Assembly: GCA_965220085.1 (NCBI GenBank)
Contig: CBDCOZ010000001.1
Span: 1-64,000, forward strand
Direction of reading: 5' to 3'
DNA from: Candidatus Oxydemutatoraceae bacterium
GTDB lineage: Bacteria; Pseudomonadota; Gammaproteobacteria; Poriferisulfidales; Oxydemutatoraceae
Length of the DNA stretch: 64,000 bases
Positions 18,086 through 48,597 of this stretch are shown in pieces. A model generated the notes under the pieces. That model worked only from the letters and a program-made list of their open reading frames with translations. It did not search any database and was not told where the DNA came from. The position numbers and the translations under genes were made by a program. The first letter of the stretch is position 1, and each line of letters opens with the position of its first letter.

Positions 18086-18571
18086 TCAGCGCGCGGCCTC
18101 TTGGCTGATGTCGCGCAAGACCGCGCGCATCCTTTCAAACAGCGCCCGATGCTTGCCGTCTTTGGTGTGGCGCTTTTCCAGAAAGGACGGCGCGGTGTAA
18201 CTGATCCACACCAAACCGGACTTGTCTTCCCAGATCAGCAACTTCAGCGGCAGGTCAAGGCCAATCAGGCGGTTCTTTCGCAGCAACACGGTGCCGACCT
18301 TGGGGTTGCCAAAGACAAGCAACTTGGTCGGCGGCAAAGCCATCGCAACCCCCTTGGCGTTGTCGGCGTGGTCGATGACGCCAAACACACGGAACTCGTG
18401 GTGTTCCAGAATGCGCTTGGCGCGTTCGGCGGTGGTGTCCACACTGTGGCGACTTTTGATGTGCATCGTGCCTTGCGAGGCGGGCTTCTTGATGGCATCT
18501 GCCAGGCCATCGCTCGCCAACGCTGCGAGCAAGAACAGCCATGCGAGTTTAGCCGGCGCGTACTTTTGCAT
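18086..18571 (-). CDS. DUF302 domain exported protein
   Basis: Signal peptide; VFGVIDHA, LLVFGNPKVGT, GLDLPLKLLIWED. Confidence 0.85.
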   Translation of the reverse strand: MQKYAPAKLAWLFLLAALASDGLADAIKKPASQGTMHIKSRHSVDTTAERAKRILEHHEFRVFGVIDHADNAKGVAMALPPTKLLVFGNPKVGTVLLRKNRLIGLDLPLKLLIWEDKSGLVWISYTAPSFLEKRHTKDGKHRALFERMRAVLRDISQEAAR

Positions 18572-19225
18572 GGTGCGATTTAATGTGCGGTTGCAACAGG
18601 CTCAGAGCGCGCGGCGTGATGCCCTGTATGCGCCCGGCCTGACCGAGCGTCGCCGGTTTGAACCGCAGCAGTTTGCCGCGCAACTCTTCGGACAAGCCGC
18701 TGATGTTGGCGCAGTCAAAATCCTGCGAGGCGGGCTTCTTGATGGCATCTGCCAGGCCATCGCTCGCCAACGCTGCGAGCAAGAACAGCCATGCGAGTTT
18801 AGCCGGCGCGTACTTTTGCATGGTGCGATTTAATGTGCGGTTGCAACAGGCTCAGAGCGCGCGGCGTGATGCCCTGTATGCGCCCGGCCTGACCGAGCGT
18901 CGCCGGTTTGAACCGCAGCAGTTTGCCGCGCAACTCTTCGGACAAGCCGCTGATGTTGGCGCAGTCAAAATCCTGCGAGGCGGGCTTCTTGATGGCGTCC
19001 GCCATGCCGTTGCTCGCGAGCGCCGCGCGCGCGAACAGCCATGCGAGTTTAGCCGGCGCGTACTTTTGCATGGTGCGATTTAATGTGCAGTTGCAACAGG
19101 CTCAGAGCGCACGGTGTGATGCCCTGTATGCGCCCGGCCTGACCGAGCGTCGCCGGTTTGAACCGCAGCAGTTTGCCGCGCAACTCTTCGGACAAGCCGC
19201 TGATGTTGGCGTAGTCAAAGTCCTG
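18473..19225 (-). repeat. 250-bp tandem repeat of the mnmG 3' end / DUF302 5' end junction
   Basis: Period exactly 250 bp; yields two 90-aa chimeric ORFs (18549-18821, 18799-19071). Confidence 0.92.
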
Positions 19226-20920
19226 CGGGATGGCCGTTTGCTCGGCGTCCGCCATGCGCCGAATTTCCTGTTCCTGACGCGGCAGGTAGCCGGCGTAAGC
19301 GGCGGTCGCCTCCAGTTGCTCTATCGCTTGCTCATCGCTTAGCGGGTCGGGCAGTTGCGCAAGGGCTGCGATGTCGGCGTAGCGAATGCCCGGCCGGCGC
19401 AACAGCTCGGTCGCGGCGCACGTGTTTTTCAGATTGATGTCGCGAGCGCTTGCATCTTGCGGCGTGATCTTCAGTGCGGCGAGCCGCGCCTGCTCCTTTT
19501 CAATCCGCTCCATCTTGTTATTGAACAATCGCCAGCGGCGGTCGTCAACGAGGCCGAGCTCGCGCCCTTTCGGCGTCAAGCGGGCGTCGGCATTGTCGTG
19601 GCGCAACAGCATCCGGTACTCGGCGCGGCTGGTGAACATTCGGTACGGCTCGGTCGTCCCGCGCGTGACTAAGTCATCTATCAGCACACCGATGTAGGCC
19701 TCATCGCGACGCGGGTACCACGGCGCCAGCCCGCGCACCGTTCGTCCGGCGTTAAGACCGGCAATCAAGCCCTGTGCTGCGGCCTCCTCATAGCCTGTCG
19801 TGCCGTTGATCTGACCGGCGAAGAACAGGCCTTTGACTGCCCGCGTTTCCAGCCACGGGCGCAGGCCGCGCGGCTCGAAGTAATCGTATTCAATCGCATA
19901 GCCCGGGCGCGTGATGTGGGCGTTCTCAAACCCCTTGACGGATTGCACCATCGCAAGCTGTGTTGCGAACGGCAGACTGGTTGAGATGCCGTTCGGGTAG
20001 ACCTCATCGGTGTTCAAACCTTCCGGCTCTATGAATATCTGGTGCGAGCTCTTATCGGCGAACTGCGTGACCTTGTCTTCTATCGACGGGCAGTAGCGCG
20101 GGCCGACCGATTCTATCGCGCCGTTGAACATGGGCGACTGATGCAGCGCCTCGCGGATGATCGTGTGCGTCTTTTCATTGGTGCGCGCGATGTGGCACAG
20201 CCGTTGCTCGGGGTGTTGGTCGCGGTTGCCGATGAACGAGAAGACCGGGCGCGGGGAGTCGCCGGGCTGTGTCGCAAAGCGCGCGTAATCAAGCGTCGCC
20301 CCGTCGATGCGCGGCGGCGTGCCCGTTTTGAGCCGCCCGACATTCGGCATCAACTCGCGCAACCGCGCGGCCAGCGCAATAGTCGGCGCATCGCCCGCGC
20401 GCCCGCCGCCGTGATTGTTCGCGCCGATGTGAATGCGCCCGCCGAGAAAGGTGCCGGTCGTCAGCACGACGGTTTGCGCTTTGAAGGTCAGCCCCATGCC
20501 GGTTTTGACGCCGCATACGCGGTCGTTCTCAATGATGAGATCGTCTGCCGCCTGCTGGAACAGCATCAGGTTCGCTTGCCGCTCGACCAGCCGGCGCACC
20601 GCATTGCGGTAGAGCGCGCGGTCGGTCTGCGCGCGGGTTGCCCGCACCGCAGGCCCCTTGCGCGAGTTGAGCACGCGAAAGTGAATGCCCGCGCAATCCG
20701 CCGCCTGCGCCATGATGCCGCCCAGCGCGTCGATCTCGCGCACGAGATGGCTCTTGCCGATGCCGCCGATGGCCGGGTTGCAACTCATCTGCCCGACAGT
20801 CTCTATGCTGTGCGTCAGCAACAACGTGTGCGCGCCGGTGCGCGCCGCCGCCAGCGCCGCCTCGGTACCGGCGTGCCCGCCGCCGACGACGATCACCTCA
20901 AATTCTTGCTGATTAGCCAT
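19049..20920 (-). CDS. mnmG: tRNA uridine 5-carboxymethylaminomethyl modification enzyme
   Basis: [58 protein letters not shown]. Confidence 0.98.
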
Positions 20921-20954
20921 GCCGCACATTCTACCACTCCCCCGCGCGCTCACT

Positions 20955-21125
20955 ATACTCTTCCCCTTGCGGGAGAGTCGGCGAGCGTAGCAAGCCGGAG
21001 AGGGGGAAAGCTCCCACCTTGCGCCATGCGTCGCTCTCCCCTTGCGGGCGGCAACTCGCGGCAGGCAAGCCGAAGGTGGCGTCGGGCTCTGCGCGCTCCC
21101 CTTGCGGGGATTGCTCGCACTCAGT
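20955..21125. repeat. REP/MITE-like palindromic repeat cluster
   Basis: CTTCCCCTTGCGGGAGAGTCGGCGAGCGTAGCAAGCCGGAGAGGGGG plus partial copies; same family at 26380, 26960, 28660, 30089, 30325, 32220, 40010, 40086, 42500, 58165. Confidence 0.8.
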
Positions 21126-21322
21126 GTGGCGACAACTCATCCTTCAGGCCACCCCGCCTTCTCAATAGAAACCCGACCGACCACGCTATGGACTGGGACA
21201 TCAAACACCTATGGCACAAATTGCAAAATATTTGCCCAAAGTTTCCAATATGTGCTGGCACCATACAGCTGTGCGCCCGTTGTGCTAGAATACAACTCAT
21301 TAACCACGCAAGGAGTCAGACC

Positions 21323-23867: not shown

Positions 23868-25292
23868 ATGAAAAAATTACTTTGTATCATCCTGCTATTG
23901 GGGGCGGCATCAGTGTGGGCAAACCCCATGACCGTGCCCCAAGATGTGTTAACCATAGCCCAAGCCGCTGAGGAACCTTTGAAGTTGCGCTTGCGCGTAT
24001 TCCTCGAAGGCCCCCTGCGAGGCGGTTCGTCCTCGCCCGGGGGTATCCGGTCAGGATCGCAAAGCAATCCAATCACACTAACGCTGGGAAGAGACGTATC
24101 GGGGACTATCAATCCGCCCAGCACCGTTTACTACCGTTTTACGGTGTCTACGCGCACACAGGTTACGATTACAACCGCCGGCACAACTGACAGAAGCGTC
24201 TTCTTGGAAAACAGTGAGGGCGGAACATTGGATGTTAACTTTTCTTCTGACGGAGAGACCATCGAGATAACTTCGATTCTTACAGCAGGCACTTATTACA
24301 TAATAGTTGGCGGAGTGGGCCTTGTTGATGAACCACCAGGAAGTTACACTCTGATGACAACTGGTGTGCCCATACCAGATATTCCCCTAACATTGGGAGA
24401 AAGCGTATTAGGGACTATCAATCTGGACGCTCCCAATTACTACCGCTTTACGCTGTCTACGCGCACACAGGTGACGATCGCAACCACCGGCACAACTGAC
24501 ACACTCGGAATATTGGAAAACAGTGAGAACATAGTGTTGGCATTTAATTATGATATTAGTAACGAGAATCCAAATTTCAGAATTACTCGGACTCTTGCAA
24601 CAGGCACTTATTACATTATCGTTTCGCTAGACTTTGGGGCAGACTCAGGAAGCTACACTCTGATGGCAACCACAGCGACCGCATCAGATATTCCCCTGAC
24701 ATTGGGAGAAAGCGTATCAGGGACTATCAATCCGGACGTTCCCAATTACTACCGGTTTACGGTGTCTACGCGCACACTGGTTACAATTGCAAGCACCGGA
24801 ACAGCCGACACACAAGGAATATTAGAAGACAGTGCGGGCAGACTGGTGAGATCAGGTTTTGTATCCCATCCTTTCGGATTTGCTGTGACTCTTGAACCAG
24901 ACACTTATTACTTTAGCATTGAGGGAGCTTTTTTTGACACAGGAAGTTACACCCTGATGACAACTGGTACGCCCATACCAGATATTCCCCTAACATTGGG
25001 AGAAGGCGTATTAGGGACTATCAATCCGGACGCTCCCAATTACTACCGCTTTACGGTGTCTACGCGCACACAGGTTACTATTGAAACCACCGGAACAACC
25101 GACACATTCGGAATATTGGACAACAGTGAGAACATAGCGTTGGCATTTAATTCTGATATTAGTAACGAGAATCCAAATTTCAGAATTACTCGGACTCTTG
25201 AACCGGGCACTTATTACATACTCGTTAGGGGCGAGTTTATTGACACGAGAGGAAGCTACACTCTGATTACAACCGCAAGGCCTGCGCCTTGA
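23868..25292 (+). CDS. secreted protein with four tandem PPC-like (pre-peptidase C-terminal) domains
   Basis: Signal peptide; four ~105-aa repeats YYRFTVSTRTQVTI.TTGTTDT...L..GTYYI...GSYTL. Confidence 0.8.
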   Translation: MKKLLCIILLLGAASVWANPMTVPQDVLTIAQAAEEPLKLRLRVFLEGPLRGGSSSPGGIRSGSQSNPITLTLGRDVSGTINPPSTVYYRFTVSTRTQVTITTAGTTDRSVFLENSEGGTLDVNFSSDGETIEITSILTAGTYYIIVGGVGLVDEPPGSYTLMTTGVPIPDIPLTLGESVLGTINLDAPNYYRFTLSTRTQVTIATTGTTDTLGILENSENIVLAFNYDISNENPNFRITRTLATGTYYIIVSLDFGADSGSYTLMATTATASDIPLTLGESVSGTINPDVPNYYRFTVSTRTLVTIASTGTADTQGILEDSAGRLVRSGFVSHPFGFAVTLEPDTYYFSIEGAFFDTGSYTLMTTGTPIPDIPLTLGEGVLGTINPDAPNYYRFTVSTRTQVTIETTGTTDTFGILDNSENIALAFNSDISNENPNFRITRTLEPGTYYILVRGEFIDTRGSYTLITTARPAP

Positions 25293-28743: not shown

Positions 28744-29865
28744 TTAGCCGGGCCGTGTGTCGTTTATGATGCGCATAAGTCGGGTGAAGCACAGTATGGC
28801 AGCCTGCCCGCCGCGACCCGGTCGTATCGTATCCAGAATTCCGGCAGCTGTTATGCTACGCAATAAGTTGCTGACAGTAGTGCGATTGACCCCGTAATCC
28901 CGGTGCATCTGTCTGGCTAGGTCGGGGACCGAAAAAATGGGTTTGCTGAATATGGCATCCAGAATATAAACAATGTATTGTGAATGGGTTATCTTGCGGA
29001 CGCGCTCTTGCATATCCTTGCGCAGGCTCTGAATGGCGGAGACTCTTCTGGCATTGGTTTTGGCATGTTCGGCAATCGCATTGAGAAAAAACGCCACCCA
29101 ATCGCTCCATGCGCCCTCATCCGAGATGGCCAAAAGATGACGGTAATATGCTTGGCGATGTTTCTCAAGATACTCGGAAAGGTAGAACATGGGTTGTGAC
29201 AAGGCTTTCTTGTAGTACAAAAACAGCGGTATCAGCATCCGCCCGACACGCCCATTGCCATCATTAAAAGGGTGCAGAATCTCAAACTGGGCGTGCATCA
29301 CAGCGGTTTGCAACAGCGGATCAAGGTCATCCGATGCCATGTATTGCTCCCATGCTCGCAAATGCTCCTCCAAAACAAGCGGTTCTGGTGGCACAAAGCG
29401 CGCTTCTGCGATGGCGCTACCGGGGCGGCCTATGTAGTTTTGGGTCGTGCGAAACGCCCCCGGCGTCTTGTCCTGACCGCGCACCTCCTCCATCAACAGC
29501 CCATGCAATTGACGCACTAAGTGTAGCGACAACGGACGCGATTTTTGCAGATACGCATGGCCTTCCCTCAAAGCGGTTCGGTAGTTGATGATTTCTCTGA
29601 AGCCATAATACTTATCTTCCTTGTCGGGCGACCCGGCCTCATACTTAAAAACCTCGTCCAGAGTTGCCTGAGTTCCCTCTATTCTGGATGACAGGGTCGC
29701 CTCTTGGTCGGTGAGGGGTGATAACATCACACCGGGGTTGGGTATGCTCTGCAACATCCCTGTATAGTGCGCCAGAGTAGCATTGGCACGTCCCACCAAA
29801 GGTAACAACCTCCTATGGTCCAGGCGATTATTCAGGGGTAAGTTGTCAGGCTGGCAAGGCTTCAT
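28744..29865 (-). CDS. Fic family protein with intact motifs
   Basis: Inhibitory SSRIEG and catalytic HPFNDGNGRVGR. Confidence 0.92.
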   Translation of the reverse strand: MKPCQPDNLPLNNRLDHRRLLPLVGRANATLAHYTGMLQSIPNPGVMLSPLTDQEATLSSRIEGTQATLDEVFKYEAGSPDKEDKYYGFREIINYRTALREGHAYLQKSRPLSLHLVRQLHGLLMEEVRGQDKTPGAFRTTQNYIGRPGSAIAEARFVPPEPLVLEEHLRAWEQYMASDDLDPLLQTAVMHAQFEILHPFNDGNGRVGRMLIPLFLYYKKALSQPMFYLSEYLEKHRQAYYRHLLAISDEGAWSDWVAFFLNAIAEHAKTNARRVSAIQSLRKDMQERVRKITHSQYIVYILDAIFSKPIFSVPDLARQMHRDYGVNRTTVSNLLRSITAAGILDTIRPGRGGQAAILCFTRLMRIINDTRPG

Positions 29866-30088
29866 CGGGGCAAGTCCATTCTGTGAAAATGCCCCATTAT
29901 ATCAGACTTGTGGCAAAAAATGAATTTTTCGATGCAAGTTGGCAAACTTGTAGCGCAGCGTTTACAAGTTTGAATAATTTCCGATAAAACAGTGTCTTAG
30001 AGACGGGTTGCGATTTGGTGAGCGATTCGGCTAAGGAAGGGTGCGCACCATGCTAACCATCGCTCCCCCCTCGCTGAGTGCAAGTAAT

Positions 30089-30227
30089 ACTCTCCCCTTG
30101 TGGGAGAGTCGGCGTAGTTGTGCTACGCCGGAGAGGGGGAAAGGAAGGTTCGTGCAAGAAGCTCCCCCTCACCGCATCGTCCTTCGCCTTCGGCTCGTCC
30201 TCTGCGACTCTCCCGCGAGGGGAGAGT
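30089..30227. mobile_element. 139-bp MITE-like element
   Basis: Terminal IRs ACTCTCCCCTTGTGGGAGAGTCG ... CGACTCTCCCGCGAGGGGAGAGT; near-identical to 32220-32358. Confidence 0.75.
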
Positions 30228-30390: not shown

Positions 30391-31506
30391 TTAGCCGGGC
30401 TGGCTGTCGTTTAGGATGCGCATAAGTCGGGTGAGGCACAGTATCGTCGCACACCCGCCGCGACCCTGTCGTGTTGTATCCAGAACTCCGGCAGCCACTA
30501 GGTTGCGCACCAGGTTGTTGACAGTGGTGCGATTGATTCCGTGACTCCGGTGCATCTGTCCGGCTAGGTCGGGGATTGAAAAAATGGGTTTGGCGAATAC
30601 GGTGTCCATAAGAGGAACAATGTATCGCGAAGGGCTTATCTTGCGGACGCGCTCGTGTATATCCTTGCGCAGACTCTGAATGGCGGCGACTCTTCTCATA
30701 CCGGCTTCGGCATGTTCGGCAATCGCATTGAGAAAAAACGCCACCCAATCGCTCCATGCGCCCTCATTCGAGATGGCCAAAAGATGACGGTAATATGCTT
30801 GGCGATGTTTCTCAAGATACTCGGAAGGGTAGAATGTGGGTTGTGGCGAGGCTCCCTTGTAGTACAAAAATAGCGGTATCAGCATCCGCCCGACCCGCCC
30901 GTTGCCATCATAAAAAGGGCGCAACATCTCAAACTGGGCGTGCATCACAGCGGTCTGCAACAGCGGGTCAAGGTCATCCGATGCCATGTATTGCTCCCAT
31001 GCTTGCAAGCGCTCCTCCAACGCAAGCGGTTCCGGCGGCACAAAGCGCGCCTCTGCGATGGCGCCGCCGGGGCGGCCCATGTGGGTTTGGGCGGTGCGAA
31101 ACTCCCCCGGCGTCTCGTCCTGACCGCGCACCCCCTCCATCAACAGCTCATGCAATTGACGCACTAAGCGCAACGACAACGGACGCGATTTTTGCAGATG
31201 CGCATGGCCTTCTCTCAAAGCGGTTCGGTAGTTGATGATGATTCTGAAGCCATAATATTTGTCTCCCTTGTCGGGCAATCCGGCATCATGCCCAAGAACC
31301 TCGTCCAGAGTCGCCTGCGTTCCGCCTATTGCGGATGACAGCGTCGCCTCTTGGACGGTGAGGGGTGATAACATCGCATCGGGTATGTCCTGTAGCATCC
31401 TTGTGTAGCGCGTCAGGGTAACGTTGGCCCGCCCCACTAGAGGCAGCAACCTCCTATGGTCCAGGCGATCATTCAAGGGTAAGTTGTCGGGTTGGTAAGG
31501 TTTCAT
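30391..31506 (-). CDS. Fic paralog with degenerate active site
   Basis: Close paralog of 28744-29865; SSAIGG and RPFYDGNGRVGR. Confidence 0.88.
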   Translation of the reverse strand: MKPYQPDNLPLNDRLDHRRLLPLVGRANVTLTRYTRMLQDIPDAMLSPLTVQEATLSSAIGGTQATLDEVLGHDAGLPDKGDKYYGFRIIINYRTALREGHAHLQKSRPLSLRLVRQLHELLMEGVRGQDETPGEFRTAQTHMGRPGGAIAEARFVPPEPLALEERLQAWEQYMASDDLDPLLQTAVMHAQFEMLRPFYDGNGRVGRMLIPLFLYYKGASPQPTFYPSEYLEKHRQAYYRHLLAISNEGAWSDWVAFFLNAIAEHAEAGMRRVAAIQSLRKDIHERVRKISPSRYIVPLMDTVFAKPIFSIPDLAGQMHRSHGINRTTVNNLVRNLVAAGVLDTTRQGRGGCATILCLTRLMRILNDSQPG

Positions 31507-31740
31507 CGGGGCAAGTCCATTTTGTGAAAATATCCCATTGTATCAGACTTGTGGCAGAAAATGAAATTTTTGCTACAAGTCGGCAAACTTGTAGCACAGC
31601 GCATACAAGTTTGAATAATTGCCGATAAAACAGTGTCTTAGAGACGGGTTGCGACTCGGCTAAGGGGGACTGCGCATAATGCTCACCATCATTCTCTCCT
31701 TGTGGGGGAATTGCTCGCACTCAGTGCAGAGGCCGAAAGG

Positions 31741-31803
31741 CAGCAACCTCCTATGGTTCAGGCGATTATTCAGGGGCAAGTTGTCAGGTTGGCAAGGCTT
31801 CAT
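31741..31803 (-). pseudogene. third fic copy, 5' 21 codons only
   Basis: MKPCQPDNLPLNNRLNHRRLL with the same upstream region as the other two copies. Confidence 0.8.
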
Positions 31804-31942
31804 CGGGGCAAGTCCATTCTGTGAGAATGCCCCGTCATGTCATACTTGTAGCGCAGGGTTTACAAGTTTGAATAATTGCCGATAAAACAGTGGCTTAGAG
31901 ACAGGTTGCGAGTCGGCTAAGGAAGGGTGCACACCATGCTAA

Positions 31943-32216
31943 CCATCGCTCCCCTCGCGTGGGGACAAATGATTACCCGAAGTCGGATGTGGTGGCATTA
32001 TACCATCACTCCCCCCTCGCATGGGACAAATTTGTTGCGATGCGCGCGACGCCTCGGCGTCTCGCATCACTCCCCCCTCGCATGGGACAAATACACGATT
32101 GAAGTGCGTTTAATCCCCGTTTAAATCATTCCCCCCTCTGTGGGACAAATATCACTCTCCTCTTGTGGGTGCTCTGTCGACGCACTGCCGCTCGATTTCC
32201 CTCGCGTGGGACAAAT
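31943..32216. CRISPR. orphan CRISPR-like mini-array: 4 repeats, 3 unique spacers, plus a degenerate fifth unit
   Basis: Core repeat ATCACTCCCCCCTCGCATGGGACAAAT (exact at 32005 and 32066, variants at 31945 and 32125, partial at 32198); 32-34-nt unique intervals; no cas genes in the window. Confidence 0.7.
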
Positions 32217-32219
32217 ATC

Positions 32220-32358
32220 ACTCTCCCCTTGTGGGAGAGTCGGCGTAGCTGTGCTACGCCGGAGAGGGGGAAAGGAAGGTTCGTGCAAGAAGCTCCCCCT
32301 CACCGCATCGTCCTTCGCCTTCGGCTCGTCCTCTGCGACTCTCCCACGAGGGGAGAGT
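32220..32358. mobile_element. 139-bp MITE-like element
   Basis: Copy of 30089-30227. Confidence 0.75.
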
Positions 32359-32411
32359 GTTTCCCCCTCACCAGTGCGCTTGCGAGGATGGTGCGAGGGG
32401 AGCGGAGCGGG

Positions 32412-32532
32412 CAAGCTCTTTGCGATATTTTGCGGCTGCGCCGGGTCGGTTATGCGCTCGGATTTAATTTGCAAAATCGGAATCTTGTCAATAAGCTCCC
32501 CGCCGCTAATGGGTGCGATGATGCGTTTTCTT
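32412..32532 (-). pseudogene. DUF6165-like N-terminal fragment
   Basis: IIAPISGGELIDKIPILQIKSERITDPAQ. Confidence 0.55.
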
Positions 32533-33006
32533 ATCCGGCAACGGAGAACCGATCCAGAATGCAAATCGGAGGAACGAGCGCAACAATGGACACCGATCAA
32601 AACCGCGATGCACTTCACCATGACCGCGGAATATAAGCACAAAGTGAAGCGCAAGAATGCCTTGCGCAAGTTGGCCGACAATGCGCAGGCCGACCACGAC
32701 GACAAGCCAAGCGCTTGGTTCGAACAACGCGGTCACCCATACCACACGCATTGCGAATCCTTCAGCGCGCTGGCCGACACCGAACACGGCGCGAACGGCC
32801 GAGCCAAGTCATAAGCATCGAGCAACACAAAGCAACAGCATCGAGCAACGCGAAGTAGCGCGCACCGGTTGCGAGCCGACCGGTTGCGACGGCGAGGGTG
32901 ATCTATAATCGCCTTCGATCTATGCGGCTTGTGTGTAGACCGGACAAGCCGCACCTTTAATCTGTGTATGCTGTGGCACTTTAAAATAACTTACCGAAGG
33001 AGGCAA

Positions 33007-34449
33007 ATGATGAAAAGAGTAATCTTTTTCATATTCATTGCCCTTCTTTGGGGCAATGGAAAGGCATTGGAGATTAAAATCACCAATGCAACAACTCAAG
33101 ACTATATTTGGGCTAATGATGCAGATTTTGAGGCTTCAACCTGGAGCTCTGTATTACAAGATATCCTCTCTGAGGATGTTTTACAAACATTTTCTTCTAC
33201 TGCAAACACAGTGTCAACTGATACTATTGTGGCAACAACCCCAGATCACTTTGAGGTTGATGAAAATCTTGCATCAGCAGAAACAACAACAAATTCTATT
33301 GAAAAATCTCCGCTATCTGCAGAAGAAATGAGAAAAAGATTTGTTGTATCTGACGGAAATAGTTCCACATTGAGAAATCATCAGTATGCTGTCTTACAAT
33401 CAGCATGCTTGGGATATGAACATTGGGTTGAAAGACCTAATGAGTGTAGAGTAAAGGAAAATTTTCTTAACGAGAATGGAACCGCACCATACACATTCCT
33501 TCATATCCAAAGTGGTGGAACACACCAAGAAACAGATGAGATTGTTGAGTTTGTGAAAGCTTCTAGTAAGACAGATGTTTTAACAAGATCTAGTCAGCCA
33601 AATGCCAATGATATTGTTGCAGCAGGAATGCATCCAAACTTTGTTGTTGTTACCTCTGCTGGAAATACGAAGAAAGATGATATTTTCGGGGAAAGAGTTT
33701 ATCGGAATGAAGACGGACTCTGGATACGTAGTCATAATGATAATCCTGTACAAGATCAGTATCAAGATGATTATAACAATGTCATTAACGCAGTCGAAGA
33801 AGATCGTGCTGCATATGTAGCTGGTTATGTTATCAGGAGAACAATAAATGGACTAACACGCAGCGTTAAAACAAGTGAGTTGGAACAAATTCCAGTTCAT
33901 CAACATATTAATGTTGAGGGTACACTGCAACGAGCATCTGGATCTACATCTTGTTCAAAATACACAGGGAGGAACTGTTTTTGGCTTCCATATGGTATTG
34001 AATATCAGAACGTGGAGGGTGAAAAAAAAGTAATTCCGGGAACCTCTTTCGGTTCCCCCAGATTTGGTGCAATCCTTGCTTCCGCCATAGCATTAGATCC
34101 TTCTATGAATGGAACAGATGCTTTGAGGTTGGCGAGGGAATGTGCAATCAAGGTTGAAAGGCTTGGTGGTGCAGGAATCCCAAACTGGCCATGTATGAAG
34201 AGAAAAATAGCGGAGAAAGTCAATAAGGAGTCTTTGAATATAACAATAAACGAAGACTTCTTGAGACTGGAAAAAGTAGTTGTAGATGCAATATCTACAT
34301 CAACTTATGTAACTCTTATCAATCCAAGGATTGAACCAGACATAGTGGTGCCTCCAGAACCGCCGCCGCCGCAGGTAGCATCGACATCGACGGAGTCAAA
34401 CGCTCTGCGCTTGCGCTTGCGCCTATTCCTAGAAGGCCCCCTGCGATGA
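33007..34449 (+). CDS. secreted subtilisin-like (S8) serine peptidase
   Basis: Signal peptide; VVTSAGN oxyanion motif, GTSFGSP catalytic Ser; low GC; ends with LRLRLRLFLEGPLR. Confidence 0.7.
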   Translation: MMKRVIFFIFIALLWGNGKALEIKITNATTQDYIWANDADFEASTWSSVLQDILSEDVLQTFSSTANTVSTDTIVATTPDHFEVDENLASAETTTNSIEKSPLSAEEMRKRFVVSDGNSSTLRNHQYAVLQSACLGYEHWVERPNECRVKENFLNENGTAPYTFLHIQSGGTHQETDEIVEFVKASSKTDVLTRSSQPNANDIVAAGMHPNFVVVTSAGNTKKDDIFGERVYRNEDGLWIRSHNDNPVQDQYQDDYNNVINAVEEDRAAYVAGYVIRRTINGLTRSVKTSELEQIPVHQHINVEGTLQRASGSTSCSKYTGRNCFWLPYGIEYQNVEGEKKVIPGTSFGSPRFGAILASAIALDPSMNGTDALRLARECAIKVERLGGAGIPNWPCMKRKIAEKVNKESLNITINEDFLRLEKVVVDAISTSTYVTLINPRIEPDIVVPPEPPPPQVASTSTESNALRLRLRLFLEGPLR

Positions 34450-36357: not shown

Positions 36358-38001
36358 ATGAAAAAATTACTTTGTATCATCCTGTTACTGGGGGCGGCAT
36401 CAGTGTGGGCAAACCCCATGACTGTGCCCCAAGATGTGTTAACCGTAGCCCAAGCCGACGGCTCCGAACCGAACCCTTTGCGTTTGCGCTTGCGCGTATT
36501 CTTGGAAGGCCCCCTGCGAGGGGGTAGCGGCTGTTCGTCTTCGTTGGGGGCCTACAGGGGTCGCGAAGCGATGTACTCGAAACTAGCAGCAGCCGGGGAG
36601 CCCCCAAAAGCCGAAGCTTCAAAGCCAATGAAATCTCAGGCTGTAGAACCCCAAGTCAAGGAGATCAAAATTGCGGGAGCCGCAACGCACGACAACCCCT
36701 TGCGGTTGCCGCGATTCAGCGAACAGGAAGAGCAAGAAATCCTCAAGTTAATCGAAGACAAAACAAGATTTTATACAAGCATCCCAAGAGAAGCGAATGT
36801 CGGCACAAACCACTGGGAGAACGTCGGACGAGAAGATGGTTTTGACATTTGGCAGTTGCATATCCATTCGCCCGAGGCTTTCGGCTTGCAAGTTGACTTT
36901 TCTGAATTTGCCTTGCAGGAGACTATGTTGGTTAAGGTGTATGGAACAAGCGACAGCGAGATGCCTTTTATCGGGGAGTATACGAGCGCGCGGGGGTACG
37001 AGGGCAATTTCACCTCCATATCCGTTCCCGGCGATACGGCGGTCGTAGAAGCATGGATGCCGATTGGCAGCGGCGCAGCGGCAGACTTCCCCTTCAAGGT
37101 CAGGCGTATCTATCATCAATTCAGAGACCGCGCAAACAATGTCAGAGGAGTGAAAAGTTTTTCACTTAGCGAAAAGCAAAATTATCCTACATGCCCCCTT
37201 CTGGATGGCCGCTGTCATTATCCGGGCGTGCGACTCCAGCCATGGCGAGCCACTGTGCAAATACTGGCCGACGGCAGCGCTTGTAGCGGGACTTTAATTA
37301 ATAGTCAGGATAGCAGCTCTTTCCCTCCGGATAGCGCTCTTCTTTTAACCGCTTACCATTGTATTGACAATATGGCAGACCCGGAAGCGGCAAGAGGCAC
37401 ACGCGTAAATGCCACGTTTAGCATCGGCTCATCGCCTTGCGCAAGTCCGCCGAACAGACCTACTGCCGCTGCCAGTGGCGCCCGATTTATTGCCGCGAAT
37501 CGGCAGGGTGATTACGCACTCTTGCTGGTTGAGAACATTATAGGCGACGGTGTGCTTTTGGGTTGGCGGCCCGGCAGACTGCCGGTGGGAGCAAGCCTTC
37601 AAATATTTCACCACGGAGTGGGGGTATCAACACAACAGTATGCAGAGAGCAAAGTAACGGGTTTTTCACTACACAGCGGAACAGGCGCTTTTCGTGATTG
37701 TGGAAATTCTTCCGGGTGTTCACACTATAGTCTCCACTTAGCAGAGGGCGGCACAAGAGGGGGATCATCCGGCGGGGGATACTTTGTAAGGGGCAGTGAT
37801 GGGGAGTTTTTCCTTAATGCTGTCCTTACGCATGGGAATCGGCGCACTTGCACAAACAAGGCTTCTTTGTTGCAGAAAATTAGCGAAGATGGCAGGGTTC
37901 TGTGCGCTCTTAGTGCGGGAGGGTACGGTTATGCTAGACGCGGTCAGCAATGCGCTGATAGTGCCCGCCCATCATATGGCCTTACAGGCCAGCAATGTTA
38001 A
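36358..38001 (+). CDS. secreted trypsin-like serine protease (lysyl endopeptidase/Achromobacter protease I-like)
   Basis: CSGTLIN, LLTAYHC, GDYALL, GGSSGGG; signal peptide identical to that of the 23868 protein. Confidence 0.85.
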   Translation: MKKLLCIILLLGAASVWANPMTVPQDVLTVAQADGSEPNPLRLRLRVFLEGPLRGGSGCSSSLGAYRGREAMYSKLAAAGEPPKAEASKPMKSQAVEPQVKEIKIAGAATHDNPLRLPRFSEQEEQEILKLIEDKTRFYTSIPREANVGTNHWENVGREDGFDIWQLHIHSPEAFGLQVDFSEFALQETMLVKVYGTSDSEMPFIGEYTSARGYEGNFTSISVPGDTAVVEAWMPIGSGAAADFPFKVRRIYHQFRDRANNVRGVKSFSLSEKQNYPTCPLLDGRCHYPGVRLQPWRATVQILADGSACSGTLINSQDSSSFPPDSALLLTAYHCIDNMADPEAARGTRVNATFSIGSSPCASPPNRPTAAASGARFIAANRQGDYALLLVENIIGDGVLLGWRPGRLPVGASLQIFHHGVGVSTQQYAESKVTGFSLHSGTGAFRDCGNSSGCSHYSLHLAEGGTRGGSSGGGYFVRGSDGEFFLNAVLTHGNRRTCTNKASLLQKISEDGRVLCALSAGGYGYARRGQQCADSARPSYGLTGQQC

Positions 38002-39461: not shown

Positions 39462-39995
39462 TCACTGACCGAGTGTCGCCAGCTTGAACTGTAGCAGTTT
39501 GCCGCGCAGCTCTTCGGACAGGCCGCTGATGTTTGCATAGTCAAAATCCTGCGGGATAGCCGTTTGCTCGGTGTCCATCATGCGCTGAATTTCCTGCTCC
39601 TGACGCGGCAGGTAGCCGGCATAAGCGGCGGTCGCTTCAAGTTGCTCGACCGCTTGCTCGTCGTTTAGCGGGTCGGGCAGTTGCGCAAGGGCTACGATGT
39701 CGGCGTAGCGAATGTCCGGCCGGCGCAACAACTCGGTCGCACTGCAAGTGTTTTTCAGACTGATGTCGCGGGTGCTTGCCTCTTGCGGTGTAATCTTCAG
39801 TGCGTCAATCTCACGCACCAGATGGCTCTTGCCAATCCCGCCGATGGCCGGATTGCAACTCATCTGCCCGACAGTCTCTATGCTGTGCGTCAGCAGAAGC
39901 GTGTGCGCGCCGGTACGCGCCGCCGCCAGCGCCGCCTCGGTCCCCGCGTGCCCGCCGCCAACGACAATGACCTCAAATTCTTGCTGGTTAACCAT
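39462..39995 (-). pseudogene. mnmG: mnmG copy with large in-frame internal deletion
   Basis: N-terminal ~65 aa (...HLVREIDAL) fused to the C-terminal part (KITPQ...LATLGQ*). Confidence 0.9.
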
Positions 39996-40007
39996 GCCGC
40001 ACATTCT

Positions 40008-40240
40008 ATCACTCCCCCCTCGCGGGGGAGTCGGCGAGCGCAGCAAGCCGGAGAGGGGGACAGCCTCATACTTGCACTAACCAACACTCCCCCCTCGCGG
40101 GGGAGTCGGCGAGCGTAGCAAGCCGGAGAGGGGGAAAAGGAAAGTTCGTGCAAGAAGCTTCCCCTCACCGCATCGTCCATCGCCTTCGGCTCGGTCTCTG
40201 CACTTGGTGCAAGCCGGAAACTTTCCCGCAAGGGGAGAGT
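40008..40240. repeat. tandem REP/MITE-like copies
   Basis: Two ACTCCCCCCTCGCGGGGGAGTCGGCGAGCG.AGCAAGCCGGAGAGGGGG units; the second extends to a full MITE variant. Confidence 0.75.
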
Positions 40241-42293: not shown

Positions 42294-42430
42294 CCTTCTT
42301 TCTGATAAAAACTTTCCCTGTCGAATGGCAGGGAGGCTTATATGATAAATCATCGTGTTGCATTTGGTGGCTGTGGAGACGCATCCGAGACACGTTGCGA
42401 TTCGGCTAAGGAGGAGTGCGCATAATGCGA

Positions 42431-42520
42431 CCATCGTTCCCCCTTCGCACGGGACAAATAAGGTAACTTTGCTCAAAGGACGCTCAAATTACCATCGTTC
42501 CCCCTCGCGGGGGAGAGTCG
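42431..42520. CRISPR. CRISPR-like repeat-spacer-repeat unit merging into a REP element
   Basis: CCATCGTTCCCCCTTCGCACGGGACAAAT + 32-nt spacer + CCATCGTTCCCCCTCGCGGGGGAGAGT; period 61; same upstream flank as the 32-kb array. Confidence 0.55.
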
Positions 42521-42671: not shown

Positions 42672-44795
42672 TCACGGTAAGTCCAATTGTTTTTTCATGC
42701 TTGCACATAAATCGTAGGTGGACATACCGACGATTAAGTCACTTTCCCCTCCTTCGTTGATATTAGGATACCAATACAGTCCGCAACGAGCCAATATCCG
42801 TTCCAGTGATTGCATCAAAGCATAGTATTTGGATTCTTCTGAGTCCGAGTCGCATAAATTTGCCAAAGTATTCCACTCACCTTCAATAAAAAACCTGAAT
42901 ATGTCATAGGATTTAAGTCTCTTAAAAAAGTCATCCCTTTCTTCAACTGAAGATATAGCGAAATAATCTGCAAGGGAGATTCCCAGTTGATTAATCAGTG
43001 TCTGCGATATGTTCGCTAACTGTTGCAAATCTTCATCTGTCCCAGTGTTTTTATAACGTTCAATAGCCGGAAGGAAATCTGTCTGAAAACTCCCTACGGA
43101 ATTCAGCGCTTGTGATTCCACATGTTCCAGAATAATACGGTGAATGAGGCCGTCCTGTTCAACCCCATTTTGTTCTGCATCAAGCTTCCCATATGTATTA
43201 AATAAGACATGACATATTTGGGTGGGTTTTTTCCAGCGTGTCATCACGGTCGCAGTGGTTCTGAATACATCAGAGTAAGTATTCTCTCCACAAACCTTTA
43301 TTTGGTTGTAATGTGTAATCATAGCAAGGCTGAAGAGCTTACGGAGGAACTTGAACATAAGGCTTATTCTTTCTTCATTGCCTTGACTTTTGAACATGGC
43401 TGTATTTACGACAAGTGTATTCTTGAACTTATTGCGCGGTGATGAGACAACATCTATCCAGCATATGTTTGCGTCTAGATTACCCCCTTCGGCAGTGTTT
43501 GTATCTTCACTTGTAATTTCTTTCACAGTTGCAACTACATCATCGGTGAATATACAGGTTGCACGAAATGGCTCTGCAAGAGACAAGTAATTTCTTGATG
43601 TCTCAAATAGCCTTGCAAGCCTTGAAAATGTTTCCTTGCTGCTTTCATCCAGCGAACAATCGTTTTTGAATTCCAGACTAACAGAGATACCCGAAGGGCT
43701 TTCTGTATTCATGTACCATTTTTCTTCTTCTAAAACGCCACCCTCATCAAACATCTCAGTAGAAAATTGATCATGGTCTATTCCTATCTTCGATTGCAGG
43801 GTTTGGAATCTGCAAGATTCTTGAGATGAAATGAAAGATGACCAACTCGCAGAAGCAATTCCTGCATTTATATTCTTTGTGCTCTTAACCTCCGGTTGTT
43901 CCTTGGCATTCGGGTGTTTGCCTAAAAGCCCGACTTCAGGAGATAGCGGGAGAAATACATACCTTAAATCTTTATTGGAAACATAAGCAGAATGTTTCCA
44001 GCAGTTATCAGCCTCCGAGTAGCTGATAGCTCCTGTATCCCCTAGCAAGAATGGTTCTTCATCTGGTTCCAACAAATCCCACTTAAAACTTTCGAATATC
44101 CCGAGTGTCACTTGATTTATGGCCTCAGGCAAATTTTCCAAATGAATCTTTTCATGGTCAATTGATGATAGTCCCTGTTCAAGGAATGGAATCATTTCGT
44201 GCATTCCTCGTTTAAGCATATCTGGCCCAAGCAATTCTATTATTTTTTTAATTTGCGCCTCCCATGTTTGCACGAGGGTCACATGTGTAAGCGGGTCTCT
44301 TATGTGCTTGGCATGAGTATAACTAATTGTCCGTGCCTGAGCTCTCGCTTCTTCATCTGATGTGGATGAGAGACGGTTATGTACATAGCCAGGGTGTTCC
44401 CCGGCAAGAACTTTGCTTAAAGGGGTGTGAATTTTCTTCACCAAATCATGCATTTGGTCTCTGATATGACCGCGGGAATGAAGGTTATGAATAAAATCTA
44501 TAAGCGTAGTTATGTCAGTTGGTTCTAACTCTCTGGTTTCCAGTACTTGAGCGACTGTTCTGGCGTAAGAGTTTTCTTTTTCGCTCAATTGCTGTTCAAT
44601 ATCAATACTCTCATCAGGCCCCGTATAAAAATTATTCTGTGCAAACACATTTTTGGTATTCGTTTTGTGCGGTTGTTCTTTCCCTTTTATGTAGTGCCAA
44701 ACTTGTTTAGTAGAGCTCTCGGAATCTATTGCAAAATTCCGAATAAGGAAATCTGGAATCAAATGATGCCTTTTCGGTTTTGAACCTGTCCCCAC
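42672..44795 (-). CDS. DUF4238 domain protein with long C-terminal extension
   Basis: N-terminal HHLIPDFLIRNF, NNFY, FLLGD, FLPLSP; low GC. Confidence 0.7.
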   Translation of the reverse strand: MGTGSKPKRHHLIPDFLIRNFAIDSESSTKQVWHYIKGKEQPHKTNTKNVFAQNNFYTGPDESIDIEQQLSEKENSYARTVAQVLETRELEPTDITTLIDFIHNLHSRGHIRDQMHDLVKKIHTPLSKVLAGEHPGYVHNRLSSTSDEEARAQARTISYTHAKHIRDPLTHVTLVQTWEAQIKKIIELLGPDMLKRGMHEMIPFLEQGLSSIDHEKIHLENLPEAINQVTLGIFESFKWDLLEPDEEPFLLGDTGAISYSEADNCWKHSAYVSNKDLRYVFLPLSPEVGLLGKHPNAKEQPEVKSTKNINAGIASASWSSFISSQESCRFQTLQSKIGIDHDQFSTEMFDEGGVLEEEKWYMNTESPSGISVSLEFKNDCSLDESSKETFSRLARLFETSRNYLSLAEPFRATCIFTDDVVATVKEITSEDTNTAEGGNLDANICWIDVVSSPRNKFKNTLVVNTAMFKSQGNEERISLMFKFLRKLFSLAMITHYNQIKVCGENTYSDVFRTTATVMTRWKKPTQICHVLFNTYGKLDAEQNGVEQDGLIHRIILEHVESQALNSVGSFQTDFLPAIERYKNTGTDEDLQQLANISQTLINQLGISLADYFAISSVEERDDFFKRLKSYDIFRFFIEGEWNTLANLCDSDSEESKYYALMQSLERILARCGLYWYPNINEGGESDLIVGMSTYDLCASMKKQLDLP

Positions 44796-45307
44796 CGGGT
44801 TGTCCTCCTTTTTGCTTGGTTGTACTTAGGTGCTATGGAATGACACCTACATTATTCTATGCCAGAGATTGTGCCCATGCTTAGAATTATGTCAGTTGTC
44901 AGCAGAGCGGCTTGTCGGCATGGAGCGGCAAGCCCAGATGCCGCACATCGCGGCGGCAACGATAGCGCTAAGAGGCACAGGGATATTCCAACAGTCAGTT
45001 ACGATAAACGAGTCTTGCAAAACAAACAAAAGCGGGAATGCTTCGGGAGCGAATAAAGCGACACCGTTTGTGATAATATGAGGCTTTCCAAACGAGTCCG
45101 CTTTAGGAGAGCATGGCAAAATGCAGATGAAAACAGATTTGCAAACCCAAGACCCGAAGAAAAAAAGGCCAGCAGAGATGGTTTCCGGCGAGTCTGTCAA
45201 CCCGACACAAGGCTATGCCCGTTGCACAGCGGTTCCAGCGTATCAGTCCGTGAGAAAAATAGGCAATAACTCCTAAGGAGCACACGGTTAGTCGTATGCC
45301 ATCTAAC

Positions 45308-46282
45308 ATGACTCGTAAGAGGAACAAAAAGCATAACAAAGTCAAAGCTGTTTCTTTGTTCAGCGGTTGCGGCGGGTCAGATAGCGGAGCGCTCGCTGCG
45401 GGCTTTGATGTAATTTTTGCTAATGACATCATGCCTTATTCCAGAGATGTCTATCTGGCTAACTTGCCGGAAACAGACTATCAATGCAAAAACATTGAAG
45501 AGATTGCTTCATTCCCTAAAGCGGATCTGCTCATTGGCTGTTATCCATGCCAAGGGTTTAGCCAAGGCGGGGCGAGAAAATCTGATAGAGCGGTTAACTA
45601 TCTTTACAGACAATTTCGTCGATCATTGTGCGCAATAAAACCTAAAGCATTTATTGTCGAAAATGTGGCTGGCATGTACAGAAGTAATTTTAGCCGTCTA
45701 TTAAATAATCAATTGGTATGCTTCCGCACAGCCGGTTATTCAGTCACTCACAAGATGCTTAATGCGGCAGACTATGGCGTTGCTCAAGAGCGCCGCCGCA
45801 TTTTTATTGTAGGCATCCGTTCAGATTTGGGAGAAAAATATACATTCCCTTGCCCTACTCATGGCCCTGCGGGAAGGAAACCGATTAAGACTATAGCCAA
45901 AGCTCTGGATGGCTTGCCAGAGTGGCCAAAAGGAAAGTTTCTAGAACAAGATTTTCATTGGTACTATATGTCTCGTAATAGACGAAGAGATTGGTCTGAA
46001 CCCAGCAAAACGATTGTTAGCAATGCTCGCCATATGCCATTGCATCCGATTACTCCCGCGCCTGTTCGCATAGGAAACGATGAGTGGAGGTGGCTGGATA
46101 AGGATAAAAATTTGCCGAAGAGGAGATTCTCTTATGAAGAAGCTGCGTGTCTCCAAGGGTTCGAGAAAAAATTTGTGTTTCCGGAAAACGGGAACCTTAT
46201 GGCTAAATATAAGGTCATTGGCAATGCTGTGCCGCCGCCGCTATTTGAAGCTGTGGCCAATGCATTGCCAGATATTTGGTAG
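45308..46282 (+). CDS. dcm: DNA (cytosine-5)-methyltransferase
   Basis: SLFSGCGG, YPCQGFS, ENV, QERRRIF, IGNAVPP. Confidence 0.95.
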   Translation: MTRKRNKKHNKVKAVSLFSGCGGSDSGALAAGFDVIFANDIMPYSRDVYLANLPETDYQCKNIEEIASFPKADLLIGCYPCQGFSQGGARKSDRAVNYLYRQFRRSLCAIKPKAFIVENVAGMYRSNFSRLLNNQLVCFRTAGYSVTHKMLNAADYGVAQERRRIFIVGIRSDLGEKYTFPCPTHGPAGRKPIKTIAKALDGLPEWPKGKFLEQDFHWYYMSRNRRRDWSEPSKTIVSNARHMPLHPITPAPVRIGNDEWRWLDKDKNLPKRRFSYEEAACLQGFEKKFVFPENGNLMAKYKVIGNAVPPPLFEAVANALPDIW

Positions 46283-46296
46283 GAGGATATAGCAAT

Positions 46297-47469: not shown

Positions 47470-48391
47470 TGTGACCAAAGGCGTAGACCAAGTGGAATGG
47501 CAAGCCATGAAATTCGGGTCGGCATCTTGTGATGATGGCACATGGGATGATCGGGTCGCTGAGTCTGCCGAATTACATGATTTTTCAGACCCTCATACGG
47601 AGGGAAATATTGACATAGTAGATGACGATTTAGTAAATGAAAGTTTTGCCGGGAGAATACAAGAAAAAATACAAGAAAGAAAAAAGATGATGGGGGATGC
47701 CTATCCATTTAATTTGGATGGCAACAAATTGTCGTATGAAAATGAATCGGGCAGGCACCTGTTATATGAGTTTCTGCTTTTAGCATCCATAGCCAATGAT
47801 GCAACAGGAACAACAAGGCGTGATATATCAAAATGCTTTGAGCGCATAGCCGCGATGATCGTATCTGAGTATTTTGGAAGTTATGCAGAGTGTCACCATG
47901 TCGGCTTTCCCAGAGATGATAGCAGTAATTTTGAAGATGCAATGATCAAGGTGAATAAGTTGACCGGAGAATTTTCATGGAACCCTGATAAGGATGCTGT
48001 GAATCATCAGGATGTAAAAGATGAAGGGTTGGATTTTATTATTCGCATGAAGCATGCTGATAACAGATTGGCGGCACAACTTTTTATCTTAGGGCAATGT
48101 GCCTGCGGGCAAAATTGGGATAGCAAAACCGGCGATTTGAAGTTAGGCACGTTAGAAAAATGGTTTCACCCTATGTCATATGTGCCTCCTGTAAAAGCAT
48201 TTGCAGTGCCTCATTATATTGAGAAGCAGAAAATAATAAACAGCAGCAGGGAGTGTGGTCTCCTATTTGACAGGGTGCGAATAGTCAATATTGCTTTTGC
48301 TGCCGAATGTCAAAATGCAATCGCAGAATTCTTTTCTGAAAATAGCTGGACAGAACCAATCCTGTCTCTCATCGAAGAGCGCCGGAGTTGA
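47459..48391 (+). CDS. putative restriction-endonuclease-fold protein
   Basis: FERI...GFPR...KDEGLDFI...LGQCACG..W (D...QxA variant of PD-(D/E)XK). Confidence 0.55.
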   Translation: MAVDVTKGVDQVEWQAMKFGSASCDDGTWDDRVAESAELHDFSDPHTEGNIDIVDDDLVNESFAGRIQEKIQERKKMMGDAYPFNLDGNKLSYENESGRHLLYEFLLLASIANDATGTTRRDISKCFERIAAMIVSEYFGSYAECHHVGFPRDDSSNFEDAMIKVNKLTGEFSWNPDKDAVNHQDVKDEGLDFIIRMKHADNRLAAQLFILGQCACGQNWDSKTGDLKLGTLEKWFHPMSYVPPVKAFAVPHYIEKQKIINSSRECGLLFDRVRIVNIAFAAECQNAIAEFFSENSWTEPILSLIEERRS

Positions 48392-48597
48392 TTCTTAGCG
48401 ATATGGAAAAGGTGTTCCGGATGCCCCTGCTCATGGCATGGGCGTTTGTTCGGAGGTCACCCTGATTTGTTTGCCTGACAAGTTTAATCAGATTATTATG
48501 AATAGCTTGGATGGGATATAACTACTGTCTACAATGTACTCTTTTAAGACATGCTCATGGTGCCTGCCTTCTCATTTAATCAGACCGGAAAAGTAAC

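Follow-up and report, generated by a model that had tools for sequence, protein, structure and literature searches.

A CRISPR-like mini-array with REP-derived repeats in an Oxydemutatoraceae genome, a candidate product of off-target spacer integration

We analysed the first 64 kb of contig C1 (the window) in the genome of Candidatus Oxydemutatoraceae bacterium (G000), an assembly of 2.49 Mb in three contigs that is 99% complete. Downstream of gidA-gidB-parAB, the window contains a defence island of lower GC with two SoFic genes, a SoFic stump, genes for an MBL-fold protein and a DUF4238 protein, two Dcm methylases, a type I R-M system and McrBC. A short repeat-spacer array (the main array) sits in this island and adjoins a conserved core sequence, which recurs at a second, single-spacer array (array D) and at two spacer-free loci (A and B). 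The coordinates of all these features are collected in Table 1, together with further arrays of similar build elsewhere in the genome (sister arrays).

The sequence and a repeat finder placed the repeat starts of the main array at 31944/5, 32004/5, 32065/6 and 32124/5, which bore out the four repeats and three unique spacers described in an earlier sequence-only reading, and added a fifth, degenerate copy at 32190-32216. The two middle repeats (32004-32031 and 32065-32092) are identical as had been stated, over 28 nt and not 27. With the repeat set at 28 nt the spacers measure 33, 33 and 31 nt (34, 34 and 32 nt with a 27-nt repeat), and the periods are 60, 61 and 59 nt. The spacers were also rightly described as mutually unrelated and contrasting in base composition, since they show no resemblance to each other and their GC fractions are 0.50, 0.71 and 0.41 for spacers 1, 2 and 3. 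The repeat 27-mer has two copies in the window versus none in 100 shuffles, and the 9-mer GGGACAAAT occurs six times (five in the main array and one at 42451) versus a shuffle mean of 0.65 and a maximum of 3. At the right-hand end of the array, the repeat finder detected a junction duplication in which 32140-32169 and 32206-32235, separated by 36 nt, agree at 97% over 30 nt.

A contig of sequencing run X1 is the same as 31863-32279 without a single difference, X1 being an independent run that may nevertheless be the source sample. Contigs of X2, a second run of the same study, gave zero depth over 30632-32191, an observation that carries no weight. The hairpin of the main-array repeat amounts to 3-5 pairs with an energy no better than that of shuffles, and the idea of a stable repeat hairpin was dropped on this ground. 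A promoter scan found no sigma-70-like promoter for the main array in either reading direction. In an Rfam search, only a tRNA passed the gathering threshold and no CRISPR-DR family matched at E values up to 10, so that assignment of the main array to a known RNA family was also dropped.

Table 1. Coordinates of the main array, of related loci in the window and of the sister arrays; positions are those of the window unless a contig is named
Feature	Position	Strand	Description
Protospacer of the spacer in C3:1198052-1198199	18100-18132	+	In DUF302 gene; 32/33 identity; AAG flank
SoFic genes	28744-29865, 30391-31506	-	Defence island
Locus A, 'empty'	30019-30131	.	Core with one REP-like unit (27 nt) and a REP; spacer-free
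Locus B	31648-31707	.	Core and one REP variant; spacer-free
SoFic stump	~31738-31810		Defence island
Conserved core of ~50 nt (GAGAC..GTTGCGAnTCGGCTAAGG..ACC)	31890-31943	-	Adjoins the last repeat; trailer side on the minus-strand reading
Repeat R1	31944-31970	-	27-nt variant, ~4 positions off R2/R3; terminal, oldest on the minus-strand reading
Spacer 1	31971-32003	-	33 nt; minus-strand first base G; source search negative
Repeat R2	32004-32031	-	28 nt; identical to 32065-32092; bases 2-17 equal REP left arm and loop
Spacer 2	32032-32064	-	33 nt; GC 0.71; minus-strand first base C; chance-level matches only
Repeat R3	32065-32092	-	28 nt; same as R2
Spacer 3	32093-32123	-	31 nt; GC 0.41; minus-strand first base T; source search negative
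Repeat R4	32124-32150	-	Variant with 3 changes, 1 base shorter
Irregular unit	32151-32189	-	19 nt of REP left arm and 20 unique nt; inside the 66-nt repeat/REP junction duplication
Degenerate repeat R5	32190-32216	-	64% (repeat finder); ends in GGGACAAAT
Full REP hairpin, GC hairpin (32239-32262) and more REP units	32217-32420	.	Leader side on the minus-strand reading
Core copy at sister locus D	42380-42431	-	
Array D first repeat	42432-42459	-	28 nt; ends in GGGACAAAT
Array D spacer	42460-42492	-	33 nt; copy of a DinG-family helicase gene segment
Array D second repeat	42493-42520	-	Hybrid of the 5' part of the repeat and the REP right arm
Sister array	C2:217090-217244		28 + 33 nt, spacer twice; source ABC-2 permease, 30/33
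Sister array	C3:1198052-1198199		28 + 32/33 nt, 60-nt unit, spacer twice; source DUF302 gene (window 18100-18132), 32/33
Sister array	C3:1950504-1950714		Two traceable spacers; sources PriA (32/33) and amidohydrolase (28/30)
Sister array	C3:1303986-1304470		28 + 33 nt, eight copies; source CorC/CBS gene, 31/33
Sister array	C3:1964560-1965073		28 + 33 nt, eight copies; source FMN_bind gene, 33/33

The core is common to four loci of the window (30019, 31648, 31905 and 42394) and absent elsewhere in the genome, and three of its four copies fall within a duplicated region upstream of the SoFic genes. Loci A and B represent an unoccupied version of the site, but as paralogues rather than as the corresponding site of a different strain. 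In array D the period is 61 nt, and the two repeats share only ~17 nt. Two other candidate roles for the locus were rejected: a small ORF starting from an SD-like GGCTAAGGAGG and an ATG in the core, the frame of which is broken in locus D, and an element linked to SoFic, as a CRISPR-like array was found within ~1.5 kb at none of the 29 other SoFic loci of the class (0/27 when two loci from the unpublished genomes G091 and G358 are excluded).

The repeat of the main array derives from a REP. REP hairpins (ACTC(T/C)CCCC-loop-GGGAGAGTCG) and composites derived from them crowd the genome; allowing up to two mismatches, we counted 61 copies of the hairpin in G000 and none in the family's 18 other genomes. 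The 16-nt 5' part of the array repeat matches the REP at 40008 in full (16/16) and closely resembles dozens more REPs, while the REP right arm GGGAGAGTCG is missing from the array repeat and (AT)GGGACAAAT is found instead in all six copies. A complete REP at 32217 closes the main array. Since the relatives have no copy of the REP whose left arm and loop it carries, the repeat is native to this lineage, and the array most likely was built here and not imported.

Such a repeat could also belong to an ordinary REP/BIME-like cluster, with units inserted or duplicated side by side, the 'spacers' being merely the DNA between them and no Cas enzyme having been involved. The REP-derived repeat, the full REP at the array end and the weak repeat hairpin all fit this explanation, as does the general composition of the genome, which abounds in REP clusters and tandem arrays; in a few other places, irregularly spaced REP pairs flank 34-41 nt of sequence that could not be traced. 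(A loose scan of the genome for the REP motif was too noisy for use.) Several observations argue against it, namely identical 28-nt repeats enclosing dissimilar spacers with GC fractions from 0.41 to 0.71, spacer lengths concentrated at 31-33 nt, and the lack of any RAYT/Y1 transposase in the genome that could move REPs. The remaining evidence on this explanation comes from the sister arrays and is given below.

We searched for the sources of the spacers and for similar arrays. Against their own genome, spacers 1-3 gave at most 14 exact bases or 23/34 ungapped identities, no more than shuffled spacers attained. Spacers 1-3 and the array D spacer had no match in phages and only chance matches in plasmids (E = 0.8-7), none of the four was found by exact 26-mers in IMG/VR, and an exact 24-mer of the array D spacer was not found in metagenomes. 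Searches of 19 family genomes and 53 order genomes returned chance matches only; a 24/25 match of spacer 2 to a prolyl-oligopeptidase-type gene in the relative G001, which needs a 1-base gap, was discarded as one of these. The repeat-pair pattern had no match in genome contigs or in metagenome contigs. A looser version had one chance match in the 52 other order genomes, where a control pattern also had one, and the pattern of flank and core had one chance match, in a Rubrivirga MAG.

At least seven mini-arrays are present in G000, mostly with a 28-nt repeat and a 33-nt spacer that add up to 60-61 nt. For seven spacers, distributed over six sister arrays, a match was found to a unique chromosomal gene elsewhere in the genome. 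The array D spacer agrees at 29 of 33 positions with C3:749352-749384, in a gene for a DinG-family helicase, and all four differences are at third codon positions; over a 34-nt window the match is 29/34 versus 25/34 for the best of 25 shuffles. Because no other pieces of the DinG-like gene were found near locus D, we regard this fragment as copied in and not left behind. In the five sister arrays beyond D, REP-like repeats of 27-30 nt surround copies of unique genes 30-33 nt long. A 61-nt unit (28 + 33) is found in C2:217090, C3:1303986 and C3:1964560, and several sister arrays have been amplified to 7-8 copies. Repeats differ between C2:217090, C3:1198052, C3:1303986, C3:1964560 and the arrays of the window, and all of them are REP-like. 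The spacers had earlier been interpreted as captured foreign DNA, an origin that these results do not support: searches of phages, plasmids, IMG/VR, metagenomes and relatives yielded no protospacer, and the traceable sister spacers correspond to chromosomal genes of the organism's own type.

We then aligned each of the seven traceable spacers with its source and read the source past the end of the match. The spacer end that abuts the REP left arm is C in six of the seven, and the source continues with TT in five cases and with TC in one. Read on the opposite strand, the sources thus carry 5'-AAG in 5/7 and GAG in 1/7, the G being the spacer base that adjoins the repeat. Among genomic triplets the share of AAG is 1.5%, and the probability of at least five in seven is 1.8e-8, a value that rises about twofold because the PAM side and the orientation were picked after seeing the data. 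Array D is among the sister arrays with an AAG source flank, while the spacer of the FMN_bind array (one of the seven) has an I-E PAM on neither side. To our knowledge, the PAMs and PAM positions of I-F, I-C, II-C and V-A systems do not fit the AAG pattern. Geometry and flank together point to a type I-E Cas1-Cas2 as the enzyme that would have made these arrays, and the 28 + 33 geometry with AAG beside the sister-array sources supports the likeness to I-E repeats that had been suspected on the minus strand.

Given the AAG signature of the sister-array sources, we read the window arrays on the minus strand. Acquisition in the main array would then have run from spacer 1 (oldest) to spacer 3 (newest), the REP cluster to the right of 32217 would lie on the leader side, R1 would be the degenerate terminal repeat and the core would be the trailer. 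In the main array, only spacer 1 starts with G on this strand, and spacers 2 and 3 start with C and T.

The same data bear on the explanation by an ordinary REP cluster. It leaves the AAG excess (P ~2e-8) without explanation, the sister spacers are exact-length, repeat-bounded copies of distant genes, and the surroundings of array D hold no further homology to the source gene. Although the missing cognate cas genes would suit it, we consider this explanation very unlikely. The earlier reading would have counted it as a refutation if the repeat were merely a chance variant of REP tandem decay; this is half true, in that the repeat derives from a REP but the array is more than REP decay. The description of the locus as a repeat-spacer array of CRISPR type, as opposed to decayed tandem repeats, holds.

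The genome encodes two Cas1 proteins, one in a II-C locus (Cas9, Cas1 and Cas2) and one in a V-A locus (Cas12a, Cas4, Cas1 and Cas2), each adjoining a 64-repeat array. The repeats of both systems are 36 nt long and unrelated to the mini-array repeat, and the spacer length is 30 nt for 56 of the 63 II-C spacers and 25-30 nt, with a mode of 26 nt, for V-A; use of the mini-array by either resident system was dropped, as neither repeats nor spacer lengths fit. No Cas3 over the cut-off and no Cas6f, Cas6e, Csf2 (type IV Cas7) or Cas7e was found in G000, nor was any I-E-type cas1 or cas2 or a remnant of one, and the ORFs of the window matched no Cas family in Pfam, NCBIfam or PADLOC. The main array is an orphan in the sense that its cognate cas genes are missing from the genome. 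It is probably inert in immunity now because Cascade, Cas3 and Cas6e are absent.

Among relatives, the I-E protein Cas7e was detected in G001 and G013, which are 2 of the 18 other family genomes, and in G024, one of 16 genomes from a sister family. Long arrays with a period of 61 lie alongside, and the I-E repeats of these relatives, judged by eye, follow a C-run/loop/G-run plan like that of the REP. As I-E systems circulate among the relatives, loss of I-E from this lineage or its transient supply by a mobile element is plausible. Some sister spacers are only 0-1 mismatch away from their sources and the I-E genes are gone, so that the loss would have been fairly recent.

Taking these results together, we think it rather more probable than otherwise that the main array is an orphan CRISPR-like 'neo-CRISPR', produced in this lineage by I-E-style Cas1-Cas2 integration into REP-derived sequence. 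REP hairpins would have been similar enough to I-E repeats to become targets of an I-E integrase. Staggered insertion of a 33-bp prespacer cut beside AAG would duplicate ~28 bp of local sequence and give a repeat-spacer-repeat unit; additional insertions would have produced the multi-spacer array at 31.9 kb, and slippage between repeats may have amplified single units to 2-8 copies at other loci. Recombination with adjacent REPs could account for the hybrid end repeats and for the 66-nt junction duplication at 32140-32235. The integrase would later have been lost, or may only ever have been supplied transiently. We infer that the same enzyme built the main array, the link running via array D, which shares its repeat and flank with the main array, and via the sister arrays. 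The model has weak points. Strict duplication predicts identical flanking repeats, whereas the end repeats of the main array differ from the middle pair and those of array D have little in common; such imperfect copies call for additional steps, for example slippage or an exchange with adjoining REPs. Spacers 2 and 3 of the main array lack the initial G, and the FMN_bind spacer lacks the PAM. Also counting against the model are the weak repeat hairpin, the negative promoter scan, the irregularly spaced REP pairs with untraceable DNA between them, the absence of a clear peak at 60-61 nt among the tandem-repeat periods of the genome, and the lack of any I-E cas1 or cas2 remnant in spite of the near-identity of some sister spacers to their sources.

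A different history with the same kind of enzyme is that the main array is the remnant of a canonical type I-E locus, of which the cas operon was deleted and the repeats were exchanged with neighbouring REPs, the other loci being copies or off-shoots. The I-E geometry of the main array and the I-E PAM in the sister arrays agree with such a remnant, the array is located in a lower-GC defence island, its degenerate terminal repeat resembles that of ordinary arrays, and I-E occurs in the family; excision of a cas operon is also among the origins of orphan arrays quoted in PMC13142298, citing Shmakov 2020. On the other hand, each sister array has a repeat of its own, which is what local duplication predicts and not what one dispersed array would give, and 16 bases of the repeat equal a REP missing from 18/18 relatives. 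The 'empty' paralogous loci A and B, the lack of any cas remnant in the window, and the finding of the repeat pair in no other genome or metagenome contig searched likewise count against a canonical ancestor, and we consider this history unlikely.

Under the neo-CRISPR model, acquisition from the cell's own chromosome is the outcome expected of adaptation without interference. Self spacers with a good PAM would be lethal under active Cascade and Cas3, which may explain the missing interference genes. That lethality also weighs against a working element, that is, arrays transcribed and used by I-E machinery in trans (on a plasmid or phage outside the assembly) or serving as antisense or regulatory RNAs directed at genes such as dinG and priA. 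The near-identity of some sister spacers to their sources (0-1 mismatch) suggests recent activity, several arrays have reached 7-8 copies, and functional orphan arrays are described for other species in the cited parts of PMC8616872 and PMC13142298, all of which would agree with a working element. Since the I-E genes were not found in a 99%-complete assembly and the scan revealed no promoter-like site, we give it little probability. A related proposal is that CRISPR arrays are repeatedly born from REPs and that the integrase may still act, supplied by a mobile element that the assembly lacks or being a non-canonical enzyme whose ruler is I-E-like. We hold this to be quite improbable; if it were true, the arrays scattered over the genome would be no fossils but an active, distributed memory.

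The loci of this genome appear to form a natural series of array births on one REP family, from empty through single-spacer and multi-spacer to amplified, the steps of which are directly comparable. The series bears on how new arrays originate; in the literature cited here, the demonstrations of off-target integration come mainly from E. coli over-producing Cas1-Cas2. REP-rich genomes can contain genuine integrase footprints, which CRISPR finders overlook or count as false positives, and an AAG-type flank at self-matches of a 'spacer' offers a simple test that separates such a footprint from an ordinary repeat. The number of natural loci, their shared seeding on one REP family and their later amplification seem to be new, although published lists of off-target loci may bear on this.

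We finally compared the arrays with known systems. In E. coli type I-E, as described in the cited part of PMC7054753, a 28-bp repeat is combined with a 33-bp spacer, AAG/CTT lies beside the source and the G is kept at the repeat, and 61 bp are gained per acquired spacer according to PMC11788318. The arrays of G000 resemble this system, to the extent of those descriptions, in the 28 + 33 unit, in AAG beside the sister-array sources and in a C-run/G-run hairpin of the repeat, here a weak one. They differ in that cas3, cas7e, cas6e and an I-E-type cas1-cas2 are absent from the genome, that the repeat is REP-derived and different at each locus, that the traceable spacers are chromosomal and not from mobile elements, and that an AT-rich leader with a promoter is not recognisable and Rfam gives no CRISPR-DR match. 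The arrays are thus I-E-like at the adaptation step and fall outside type I-E in their cas genes and in the lack of mobile-element spacers.

With REP/BIME elements the loci share short imperfect palindromes in many intergenic copies that are often clustered and lineage-specific, but REP clusters are not known to hold fixed-length copies of distant genes, and a RAYT transposase is absent here. In shape, array D equals the viral and mobile mini-arrays outlined in PMC8616872, in which one spacer lies between a full and a truncated repeat; the repeats of the viral mini-arrays described there match a host CRISPR-Cas system, whereas array D is chromosomal and the matching system is absent from the genome. 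Like the orphan arrays of Shmakov et al. 2020 (as presented in PMC13142298 and PMC8616872), the main array lacks cognate cas genes, and the origins quoted for such arrays in PMC13142298, citing Shmakov et al. 2020, are operon loss, mobile-element transfer and off-target acquisition. The I-F orphan arrays of E. coli, as reported in PMC8616872, have a canonical repeat and anti-cas spacers, in contrast to the REP-derived repeats found here, where no anti-cas spacer was seen.

Neo-CRISPR loci arising by off-target spacer integration were described by Nivala, Shipman & Church 2018 (cited via 10.1101/148544, PMC7054753 and PMC11788318), in E. coli over-producing Cas1-Cas2 and, in the parts of those accounts used here, with 'circumstantial evidence' in two other species. 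As in that description, spacer-sized DNA is found outside a CRISPR array, local sequence has turned into a repeat and the spacers are largely self-derived. A locus-specific duplicated repeat and empty sites are present in G000, and a Cas1-Cas2 with a matching ruler is missing. Unlike the neo-CRISPR loci as so described, those of G000 are natural and number at least seven, all of them on REP-like hairpins, some amplified to 8 copies and the enzyme gone. Within the scope of these sources, off-target 'neo-CRISPR' loci and orphan arrays are the best fit to the main array and its sisters.

The lower-GC island that carries the SoFic genes and the orphan REP-derived CRISPR-like mini-array sits between the real gidA gene (19049–21130 of the window) and an mnmG/gidA copy with an internal deletion (39462–40046). 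This deleted copy repeats the start of the real gidA at a distance of ∼19 kb, and the upstream REPs, native hairpin elements of this genome, are common to both. Two large tandem repeats, each of three units, were also detected in the window: one of 250 nt (96%) between gidB and gidA (18474–19227) and one of 309 nt within a PPC-domain protein gene (24337–25273). A dense defence island occupies 42672–62314, comprising DUF4238, Dcm with a PD-Lambda-5-like/ParB-like protein, a type I R-M system (HsdM/S/R), Dcm with a GHKL ATPase, and McrBC.

Immediately upstream of gidA, we found a REP cluster (20962–21108 of the window) of three hairpins spaced 60–73 nt apart, which could represent one more member of the mini-array family in a decayed state; the sequence between its hairpins had no traceable source. 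On contig C3 of the same genome, a 61-nt unit consisting of a hairpin and ∼33 nt was repeated 9.3 times at 1899194–1899762, ∼7 kb from the V-A locus, and a source for its spacer-like part was looked for and not found. Two other loci in this genome share a unit of ∼60–61 nt in which the REP hairpin is joined to a 33–35-nt AT-rich palindromic segment, the two being in opposite orientations (see table). Three further genomes from the class carry unrelated period-71 non-coding tandem repeats beside a SoFic homologue, and this may be a coincidence.

Tandem repeats at two loci of this genome and beside SoFic homologues in other genomes
Feature	Location	Copies	Orientation
REP + AT-rich palindromic unit	C3:1962417–1963102	12	opposite to C3:496280–496484
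REP + AT-rich palindromic unit	C3:496280–496484	3.4	opposite to C3:1962417–1963102
Period-71 tandem repeat	L036 (G178) 2649–3000		
Period-71 tandem repeat	L045 (G121) 832–1420		
Period-71 tandem repeat	L057 (G222) 1280–1420		

The peptide ..LRLRLFLEGPLR was found at the end of or inside several secreted-protease-like ORFs (32929–34449 and 36358–38001 of the window, and C3:1238900–1244200), and in the C3 ORFs tandem 27–28-nt REP-like units directly follow the stop codon. The family of REP-like units seems to build, or to overlap, the ends of secreted-protease-like genes. By eye, trypsin-like motifs were recognized in the window ORF starting at 36358 and a subtilisin-like GTS motif in that starting at 32929; a Pfam search returned no matches for either. 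Poly-C tracts of 17–23 C were located upstream of paralogous surface-protein-like genes (C3:1241570–1241600 and C3:1239440–1239470), suggesting phase variation.

Within the resident type II-C CRISPR array on contig C2, two spacer-containing intervals matched the organism's own chromosome with 96% over 26–27 nt (C3:42689–42716), and these matches are possible self-targets or prophage targets.
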